From Patescibacteria group bacterium (GTDB lineage: Bacteria > Patescibacteriota > Patescibacteriia > 2-01-FULL-39-33): a DNA stretch of 64,000 nt. Position numbers and translations under genes: made by a program. The stretch spans positions 148,487 to 212,486 of the forward strand of contig JBAZMW010000002.1 of assembly GCA_041649575.1 (NCBI GenBank), in the 5' to 3' direction. Of this stretch, positions 23,570-24,649 are shown piece by piece (the stretch's first letter is position 1; each line of letters opens with the position of its first letter). The notes beneath the pieces are model-generated. The model had not been told where the DNA came from. It was given only the letters and a program-made list of their open reading frames with translations, and made no database searches.

Positions 23570-24649
23570 ATGAATTATATTAAACAACCAATTGGCTACA
23601 TTAAAGCAGAGGGTTCTGGTCCTGATATAGTGGGTTCGGCTATTCGTATTTTAAAAGAAGTCGAAAAAAAGATGGATGTAAGATTTAAACTAATAGAGTA
23701 TAAAGGCCAAGCGCCAGCACTGAAATATACCACTAAATCATTTACTGAACTAAAAAATTTTTATAAAAGAATTCGAGAAAGAAAGGGATGTATTATTCGT
23801 GGAGGAATTTACGCTAGACAGGTTTATAGATTGCGACACGATTTTAGGCTGACATATAAACCAATCTTAATCAACCCCATACCGGAATTGTTTGAAAATT
23901 CTCCTTTTAAGGCAGCCTTTGCCAAAAAAATAAACTTATTAATAGCCAGAGAAAACGCGCAAGGGCTATTGGTTTCCAAAGAGATATTAAAGAAAACAAA
24001 AACTAACGAGATATTTGAGGGAAAATTTTTTTACGACAAAAATCTTTGCCGAAAGTTTATAGAAATGTGCTATCAGGCCGCTAGTAAAAGGAAGAAAAAA
24101 ATCATGTTTTTAATTAAGGGTGATGTTTGGAGTCGTCAGAGTTTTGGTGGTATGTGGTTTAGTTTATGGAAGGAGGTTGGAAAAAAATATCCAGAAGTGG
24201 AATTTGATTGGGAACACGACGACACTTGGCTTGGCTATTTTATGAATCATCCAGAAAAATATGATATGGTAGTAGCTTTGGGCATTAGTGGCGATTTAAT
24301 TACCGATCCGATTGCCACTTTAGCTTATGGCACCAGAGCAATTACTCCTAGCGCTAACATTGCTCCAGACGGTTTTATGACTGTTCAAACCATTCATGGC
24401 GCCGGAACCGGTATACCAAAAGGTAAGGCCAATCCCATCGCCATGATTAGAGGCATTGGTCTATTGATGGAATATTTTTTTGAAATGCCAGAGATGAAAA
24501 ATCTTATCGATCTATCTATAAGAAAGGTACTGGCCAGAGGATATAGAACAATAGATATTTATCTTAGTAATAATCCCAAACACAAATTGATCGGCTGTAA
24601 AGAAATGACCAGCTTAATAGTAGAAGAGATGCAAAAACTAACCAGTTAA
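23570..24649 (+). CDS. Isocitrate/isopropylmalate dehydrogenase-family (beta-decarboxylating dehydrogenase) protein, divergent
   Basis: N-terminus IGYIKAEGSGPDIVGSAIRILKEV resembles the GDGIGPE motif. C-terminus GISGDLITD...TPSAN...HGAGTGIPKGKANPIAMIRG matches NIFGDILSD...PSAS...HGSAPDIAGKGIANPIA. Confidence 0.55.
   Translation: MNYIKQPIGYIKAEGSGPDIVGSAIRILKEVEKKMDVRFKLIEYKGQAPALKYTTKSFTELKNFYKRIRERKGCIIRGGIYARQVYRLRHDFRLTYKPILINPIPELFENSPFKAAFAKKINLLIARENAQGLLVSKEILKKTKTNEIFEGKFFYDKNLCRKFIEMCYQAASKRKKKIMFLIKGDVWSRQSFGGMWFSLWKEVGKKYPEVEFDWEHDDTWLGYFMNHPEKYDMVVALGISGDLITDPIATLAYGTRAITPSANIAPDGFMTVQTIHGAGTGIPKGKANPIAMIRGIGLLMEYFFEMPEMKNLIDLSIRKVLARGYRTIDIYLSNNPKHKLIGCKEMTSLIVEEMQKLTS

Follow-up and report, generated by a model that had tools for sequence, protein, structure and literature searches.

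In 3-isopropylmalate dehydrogenase (IPMDH; LeuB), residues 94, 104, 132 and 139 serve the substrate, residues 139 and 185 catalysis, and residues 217', 241 and 245 the metal, roles for which Miyazaki & Oshima 1993 and Pallo et al. 2014 are credited (PMC9041340). LeuB is the best sequence match of the protein described here, the product of an open reading frame (ORF) of the isocitrate/isopropylmalate dehydrogenase (Iso_dh) family that lies between pheS and pheT on a contig of a Patescibacteria group bacterium (JBAZMW010000002.1, positions 148,487 to 212,486; this stretch of 64,000 nt is called the window, and positions are counted from its first letter). Lateral transfer between the bacterial candidate phyla radiation (CPR) and the DPANN archaea has been documented for other genes, such as form II/III RuBisCO (PMC6389311). 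The public record already labels the product of the window gene, MFA5029498.1, an "isocitrate/isopropylmalate family dehydrogenase", and the gene itself is no discovery; the novelty lies in defining a CPR/DPANN clade that lacks the catalytic Tyr, along with its partner genes and the insertion hotspot. We put a probability of about 0.62 on the reading that the gene encodes an intact, horizontally acquired accessory enzyme of this rare clade, with a non-canonical substrate and non-canonical chemistry.

The N-terminus of the protein (MNYIKQPIGYI...) agrees with the N-termini of its homologues, so the start codon is credible. A profile search gave a full-length match to Pfam PF00180 (Iso_dh; 132.6 bits, cutoff 27, E = 2.7e-38), with protein residues 8-349 aligned to model positions 2-347/348. 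Identity to canonical LeuB and isocitrate dehydrogenase (IDH) is 20-28%, and all NCBIfam scores are far below their cutoffs, so that both the family and the divergence named in the original prediction are borne out. The best NCBIfam model was leuB TIGR00169 (112.7 bits versus a cutoff of 353.2), and LeuB NF002898 (95.4 versus 393) and the archaeal LEU3 model (104.2 versus 409.8) were likewise not reached. The IDH models (TIGR00183, NF006673, TIGR02924, TIGR00175 and others) gave 89.6 versus 509 at best and otherwise 27-81 bits against cutoffs of 432-585; tartrate/D-malate dehydrogenase models gave 83.1 versus 470.4 (TIGR02089) and 85.1 versus 501 (NF006048), and homoisocitrate dehydrogenase models gave 84.4 versus 500 (NF040619), 79.7 versus 540 (NF040626) and 47.8 versus 680 (NF040855). 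By its sequence, the protein is thus a member of the Iso_dh superfamily but of no curated functional family of NCBIfam. An AlphaFold2 model built on 35 sequences (pLDDT 93.1, pTM 0.90) had only IPMDH structures as its top Foldseek matches in the Protein Data Bank (PDB), with TM-scores of 0.82-0.85 and 20-24% identity, and contained a predicted beta-hairpin (residues 137-152) as the counterpart of the IPMDH dimer arm. The fold and the arm hairpin are therefore common to the modelled protein and LeuB (Thermus thermophilus IPMDH, PDB 1hex and 4f7i; also 3u1h and 5j32; TM-score ~0.83), yet the sequence of this best match is distant.

The key residues were numbered by a 345-aa sequence taken as T. 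thermophilus IPMDH, which has the expected amino acid at every published landmark position. As in LeuB, the window protein keeps the equivalents of R94 (R89), R132 (R127), K185 (K183), D217 (D218), D241 (D242) and D245 (D246); all six, which include the metal-binding Asp triad and the catalytic Lys183, are invariant across the clade and canonical alignments. Unlike LeuB, it has Leu134 at the position of the catalytic Tyr (Y139 in T. thermophilus IPMDH, Y160 in Escherichia coli IDH). All 17 relatives compared, down to 48% identity, have this Leu, and Tyr is found there only in the deeper relatives P0018 and P0019 and in most members of the short-loop group, a set of uncharacterised Iso_dh proteins defined in this analysis (e.g. 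P0061 at locus L101, P0064 at L103 and P0017 at L089). The Arg104 motif NLRP is replaced by T(Y/F)KP (YKP in the window protein), with Ile opposite Arg104 in an ungapped alignment and a conserved Lys97 two residues before that position; two of the three substrate Arg residues are thus kept, and Lys97 and Arg256 are candidate stand-ins for the third. The specificity loop carrying E87, L90 and L91 (T. thermophilus numbering) is shortened by 9-13 residues and rebuilt as IIR77GGIYAR83QVY86(K/R)LR89, in which Arg77, Arg83 and Tyr86 are clade-specific. The position of the NAD-selecting Asp278 is variable (G/E/A/N/Q), and the LeuB motif GSLG is G(T/S)R256A in the clade and GTRA in the window protein. 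The alignment of substrate-specifying residues that had been proposed as a check therefore sets the protein apart from canonical enzymes at Tyr139, Arg104 and the E87/L90/L91 loop. Taken with the variable Asp278, these changes suggest a non-canonical substrate and an altered decarboxylation.

Complete loss of the catalytic residues would have marked a non-enzymatic relic; what we found is that only the Tyr139 and Arg104 equivalents are lost. Superfamily members that lack part of the catalytic set are known. The regulatory subunits of eukaryotic NAD-IDH (yeast IDH1; human IDH3 beta and gamma) have lost catalytic residues including the Tyr, and also lack the metal-binding Asp residues, while they still fold, bind ligands and form hetero-oligomers with a catalytic paralogue. 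IDH3 chains are among the fold and sequence matches of the window protein, but unlike those regulatory subunits it has an intact Asp triad and Lys, and no paralogue is seen in the window.

The clade is small. A word-indexed search of 5.8 billion proteins returned ~20 close relatives (37-76% identity), after which identity fell sharply to at most 28% for ordinary LeuB; of 1.84 billion cluster representatives scanned exhaustively with HMMER, only 14 matched at E<=1e-30, and a scan of JGI metagenomes gave 10 loci. The source names of the members are Patescibacteria, Pacearchaeota and Diapherotrites and add no functional information, and a literature search on the clade, and on Iso_dh in CPR/DPANN papers, found nothing specific. 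Flanking genes identified archaeal contigs (L001 with FtsZ, HTH_10 and TrmB; L005 with Hjc and PTH2; L089 with TrmB and a geranylgeranyl-reductase-like gene; L096 with proteasome alpha and Sm-like proteins) as well as bacterial ones (the window itself; L090 with S15-PNPase-MreB).

Phylogenetic placement, also proposed in the original prediction, was carried out by neighbour joining with 300 bootstraps and consistently rooted replicates. The Tyr-less clade (19 sequences) was recovered at 93% and the subclade containing the window protein (12 sequences) at 100%, and the split between LeuB and the enclosing short-loop group had 90-95% support. In this tree, archaeal hosts intermingle with bacterial ones, which requires several inter-domain transfers. 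The case resembles the CPR-DPANN RuBisCO transfers (PMC6389311) in that a patchy metabolic gene is found largely in two ultra-small radiations with interleaved hosts; it differs in the enzyme family and in the much greater rarity of the clade. The sample behind the window's contig (ERZ27247363 / SRR8542065) also yielded another Patescibacteria contig, 180 kb long, with a 69%-identical clade member (P0007; L003/L004), so that two CPR populations of one community each carry a copy (L003/L004, and the window gene at L105/L106).

These data bear on whether the protein is instead a divergent but canonical LeuB or IDH with the textbook reaction, for example one that makes NAD(P)H from host isocitrate or belongs to a remnant leucine pathway. 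LeuB/IPMDH does provide its best NCBIfam and PDB matches, and the metal ligands, the Lys and two Arg are kept. Against this stand a score of less than a third of the leuB cutoff and scores of at most 90 bits against IDH cutoffs of at least 430, the loss of Tyr139, Arg104 and the E87/L90/L91 loop, and the separate position in the tree. Genes of the tricarboxylic acid (TCA) cycle or the leucine pathway (leuA, leuCD, acn, gltA) were absent among the 20 largest window ORFs scanned, a local check of the original prediction's statement that such organisms usually lack both pathways, and no leucine-pathway context like that of LeuB is seen there. In the wider group, the conserved neighbours encode a cysteine hydrolase and an ABC importer and belong to neither pathway. 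We consider a canonical LeuB or IDH very unlikely.

A more serious alternative is that the protein is a catalytically dead relic or pseudoenzyme, either a ligand-binding protein or a neutral passenger that is decaying after transfer. The Tyr-to-Leu change and the loss of one Arg would fit this, as would the solitary position of the gene in the window, without its usual partners, the unameliorated composition of the insert, and the split or truncated copies seen in other genomes. One such copy is split into two ORFs (L097:29-1091), and another is an N-terminal 137-aa fragment (L098/L099:4241-7260) that lies beside another, strongly diverged Iso_dh-like gene together with one nitroreductase-like and one SDR gene. 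In the window, however, the ORF is of full length and keeps all 72 columns that are invariant across 17 clade sequences, among them L134, K97, R77, R83, Y86, K183, D218, D242 and D246 as well as R89 and R127. Values of dN against clade relatives were 0.18-0.25, far below dS, which was saturated for four of the five pairs; dN/dS was ~0.10 against L003, the sole measurable pair, so that the purifying selection suggested by these sequences is a qualitative statement only. In addition, Arg83 is present in every Tyr-less clade member and in none of the sampled Tyr-bearing relatives. Since the gain of Arg83 matches the loss of Tyr exactly, the pocket looks coordinately remodelled rather than decaying. 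Finally, the Tyr-less members P0013, P0015 and P0017 are still paired with a hydrolase gene in overlapping operons, which argues that the Tyr-less form is functional. A pseudoenzyme or decaying passenger is therefore plausible but disfavoured by this conservation, and we regard it as unlikely.

The hydrolase pairing is a property of the short-loop group. Intermediates P0059-P0077 (26-38% identity) share the loop deletion, a Lys before the R104 position, Tyr86 and a G(S/T)R motif; the window protein has all of these features (the Lys two residues before the R104 position, the Tyr three before R94) and falls on the same side of the tree. It differs from most short-loop proteins in that they keep the catalytic Tyr, as do most of the intermediates, and lack Arg83. 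Ten intermediates were scanned and none reached any NCBIfam cutoff, and sources name the short-loop intermediates only generically. The short-loop gene overlaps a downstream gene of the Isochorismatase family at L089 (4-nt overlap), L090, L095, L101 and L103/L104, and an SsuA/NMT1-type ABC importer adjoins the module at L103/L104 and L089; the window gene has neither neighbour. The partner hydrolase is nearest to RutB, biuret hydrolase and "cysteine hydrolase" structures and lies below all cutoffs; a nicotinamidase identity was rejected, with RutB/BiuH closest. At L103, an unknown 286-aa gene overlaps the start of the Iso_dh gene. The linkage of hydrolase and importer suggests that the ancestral role was probably the catabolism or salvage of an imported small acid bearing an amide or ureido group, and by gene order the ancestral context was probably a module that took up and broke down a small amide or ureido compound.

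The subclade of the window protein lacks the hydrolase linkage, and its neighbours differ at each locus (an SDR gene at L003, an ATP-grasp gene at L088 and a Liv-type binding protein at L091/L092). The last of these lies directly upstream of the clade gene (L091:47-1199, L092:135-1301) and is 34% identical to a copy at window positions 53337-54008. Several Liv-type (Peripla_BP_6) paralogues were observed in the window at 52965-59127, of which that at 56127..57254 has the second-lowest GC content of the long window ORFs.

Judged from sequence and model, the window protein would be a homodimeric, Mg2+/Mn2+- and NAD(P)+-dependent enzyme that oxidizes the C2 hydroxyl of a 2-hydroxy-carboxylate. 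Lys183 of the partner subunit would act as the base, with hydride transfer to the nicotinamide. The substrate would be other than isocitrate, 3-isopropylmalate, homoisocitrate or tartrate, and oxidative decarboxylation would be altered: the reaction may stop at the 2-oxo acid, or another group may carry out the protonation. The ancestor would have worked in a dehydrogenase-amidohydrolase catabolic module, from which the gene, now alone, would have landed in an insertion hotspot. More speculatively, the Tyr-less clade might represent a new activity, for example the oxidation, without decarboxylation, of a 2-hydroxy acid that carries an amide or ureido group and stems from metabolites scavenged from the host, with Arg83, Tyr86 and Lys97 replacing Tyr139 and Arg104, and might have been traded repeatedly between DPANN and CPR as a stand-alone salvage or redox module; we hold this idea tentatively.

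The location between pheS and pheT given by the original prediction was confirmed, as Pfam identified both neighbours, and a further ORF, ORF163, also lies in this spacer. Its proposal that the gene was acquired is supported as well. The Iso_dh ORF has a GC content of 0.358 and a third-codon-position GC content (GC3) of 0.317, the lowest of the 38 window ORFs of at least 250 aa (mean GC 0.445 +/- 0.042, GC3 0.496 +/- 0.069), compared with 0.457/0.540 for pheS and 0.465/0.505 for pheT; in every other host, the GC content of the clade gene matches its locus. By its PheS, the host falls among Candidatus Buchananbacteria-like Parcubacteria, and in its relatives the order helicase-TM126-pheS-pheT-ORF100-lysS is conserved, and within the examined flanks none of 80 PheS-anchored relative loci contained the Iso_dh gene. 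The closest relative, L006 (PheS 81% identical), has no Iso_dh gene and an uninterrupted junction between pheS and a repeat element described below. The pheS-pheT gap is at most 150 bp in 51 of 76 loci, and the others carry unrelated, mostly low-GC cargo, including Mrr and GIY-YIG genes (L008:9116-11107), NUDIX and other genes (L024:9059-12554), a reverse-transcriptase fragment (L078:9065-13543), a 23S-rRNA-IVS protein (L048), an LD-carboxypeptidase (L036), a D-Ala-D-Ala carboxypeptidase (L083) and small membrane ORFs. By this comparison of sequences, the spacer is a variable-cargo insertion hotspot in Buchananbacteria-like genomes, and horizontal acquisition of the Iso_dh gene is supported. 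Neither mobile-element genes nor target duplications were found flanking the insert. A defence island, prompted by the Mrr, GIY-YIG and reverse-transcriptase cargo of the relatives, was rejected because PADLOC gave no match, and a phage origin or vector was also rejected (a single PHROGs match, phrog_1724 at E=1.5e-4, and 0 relatives on 2.9 million viral contigs).

The atypical GC content could also mean that archaeal or other low-GC DNA was misjoined into a CPR contig during assembly or binning, the more so as, among named relatives of comparable identity, the nearest is from an archaeon. The insert, however, sits in a conserved syntenic block, 26 nt past the pheS stop codon, and abuts an element that is orthologous in L006. 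Furthermore, both junctions are covered by L106, an independent Logan assembly with 100% identity to window positions 23258-24683. We consider such an artefact highly improbable.

ORF163 has a GC content of 0.291 and a GC3 of 0.189, with a hydrophobic N-terminus, and a search of 5.8 billion proteins found only ORF163 itself. It carries the locus tag WC518_01960 and, next to the Iso_dh gene, adds further non-native cargo to the spacer. At its place, L006 has an unrelated 150-aa ORF.

The original prediction took the bounding of the gene by a repeat element as a sign of acquisition. The repeat is real, a structured palindromic intergenic element of about 190-270 nt with three window copies, but it does not carry that meaning. 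In L006, within ~10 nt of the pheS stop codon, there is an element that shares 80% identity across 165 nt with the window copy behind the Iso_dh gene. Because the L006 copy is orthologous and L006 has no Iso_dh gene, this window copy is ancestral to the locus and predates the insertion. The other direct copy lies upstream of pheS, so that the two bracket pheS and the Iso_dh gene together and not the Iso_dh gene alone. The repeat is thus not evidence of arrival on a repeat-bounded unit; it is context, possibly a landmark of the hotspot. Plus-strand copies start 0-3 nt past a stop codon; a long AT-rich hairpin comes first and a long imperfect palindrome after it, and the element ends in TTTTCAT(A/G)GGCTCGC. 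Of the 46 pairs that RNAalifold predicted across four copies, 22 show compensatory double changes. An Rfam scan of the window at gathering thresholds gave one tRNA only and no match for the repeat, and a permissive scan gave at best 23.9 bits versus a gathering score of 100; a fourth copy near 53996 was rejected because it did not align. The orientation of one copy is opposite to that of the genes around it, which indicates that the repeat is not a simple leader; it may be a miniature inverted-repeat transposable element (MITE)-like sequence or a structured RNA.

The called TTG start of pheS coincides with a promoter-like site, TTGACT-18-TATAAT (22455-22484, 11/12), the best site on the plus strand, and alignments of the relatives' PheS begin at residue 14, matching ATG 22494, which is probably the true start. 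AAGG lies at 23557-23560, 9 nt before the Iso_dh ATG, and the scan found no promoter-like site between pheS and the Iso_dh gene. Since promoter and terminator scan counts equalled those of shuffled sequences, these sites are used descriptively only. The Iso_dh gene would be read through from the pheS promoter, with termination at the hairpin of the pre-existing repeat.

Several points weigh against an intact acquired enzyme with its own chemistry. With the catalytic Tyr gone, the protein might be poorly active or inactive. Neither the hydrolase nor the SsuA-type binding protein nor any of the other partners has a homologue in the 64-kb window, and with decayed copies found elsewhere this suggests that the gene may be dispensable here. 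No close donor has been sampled, the nearest relatives having ~70% nucleotide identity, and the inner branching of the neighbour-joining tree is not settled. The features of the locus are collected in the table.

Table. Features of the pheS-pheT locus, of the repeat and of related loci (window positions unless a locus is named).
Feature	Position	Strand	Remarks
Repeat copy	12015-12236	-	
Repeat copy	22158-22430	+	between TM126 gene and pheS
pheS	22455..23543	+	Pfam tRNA-synt_2d and Phe_tRNA-synt_N
Spacer from pheS stop to Iso_dh start	23544..23569	+	26 nt
Inserted DNA relative to L006	~23544..24649	+	~1.1 kb, Iso_dh ORF and 26-nt leader
Iso_dh-family ORF	23570..24649	+	359 aa, ATG start
K97 codon	23858-23860		in Iso_dh ORF
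L134 codon	23969-23971		in Iso_dh ORF
K183 codon	24116-24118		in Iso_dh ORF
R89, R127, D218, D242, D246			further key residues in Iso_dh ORF
Repeat copy	24647-24845	+	AT-rich hairpin right after Iso_dh stop codon
ORF163	24854..25345	+	163 aa, between Iso_dh gene and pheT
pheT	25390..27858	+	all five expected Pfam domains; downstream hotspot boundary
Repeat copy of L006	L006:2935-3125		after pheS
Iso_dh-like and hydrolase module	L089:5001-9449		
Iso_dh-like and hydrolase module	L101:5001-6745		
Iso_dh-like and hydrolase module	L103:1667-6684		
Iso_dh-like and hydrolase module	L090:4313-5789		
Iso_dh-like and hydrolase module	L095:452-2133		

Two other features of the window were observed. A GC-rich element of ~63 nt occurs at 25977-26039 (plus strand, in pheT) and at 38905-38967 (minus strand, in a WecG/TagA-family ORF, 38422..39291), the two copies being 95% identical. 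It lies in frame in these two unrelated genes, is translated as GLPPVSPSLGGRS in both, and recalls in-frame palindromic insertions such as the Rickettsia palindromic elements; PheT orthologues lack the GLPPVSPSLGGRS residues at that linker. The region 1024-5418 holds a Sigma70_r4/HARE-HTH protein (1024..2181), an unknown ORF of 515 aa and, at 3817..5418, a type IV coupling protein that resembles TrwB and has a C-terminal zinc finger; it may be a DNA-transfer or uptake module.

For the Iso_dh family, a rare uncharacterised branch in which the Tyr is consistently replaced and the pocket rebuilt offers a concrete target for new activity. The locus also provides a clean, junction-resolved case of gene flow across two ultra-small radiations and shows that, in Buchananbacteria-like genomes, the spacer between pheS and pheT is a hotspot of integration. 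Annotations as "isocitrate/isopropylmalate family dehydrogenase" in CPR and DPANN genomes are no evidence for a TCA cycle or leucine synthesis. Since CPR and DPANN metabolism is minimal, each accessory enzyme that is kept or exchanged hints at supplies derived from the host.

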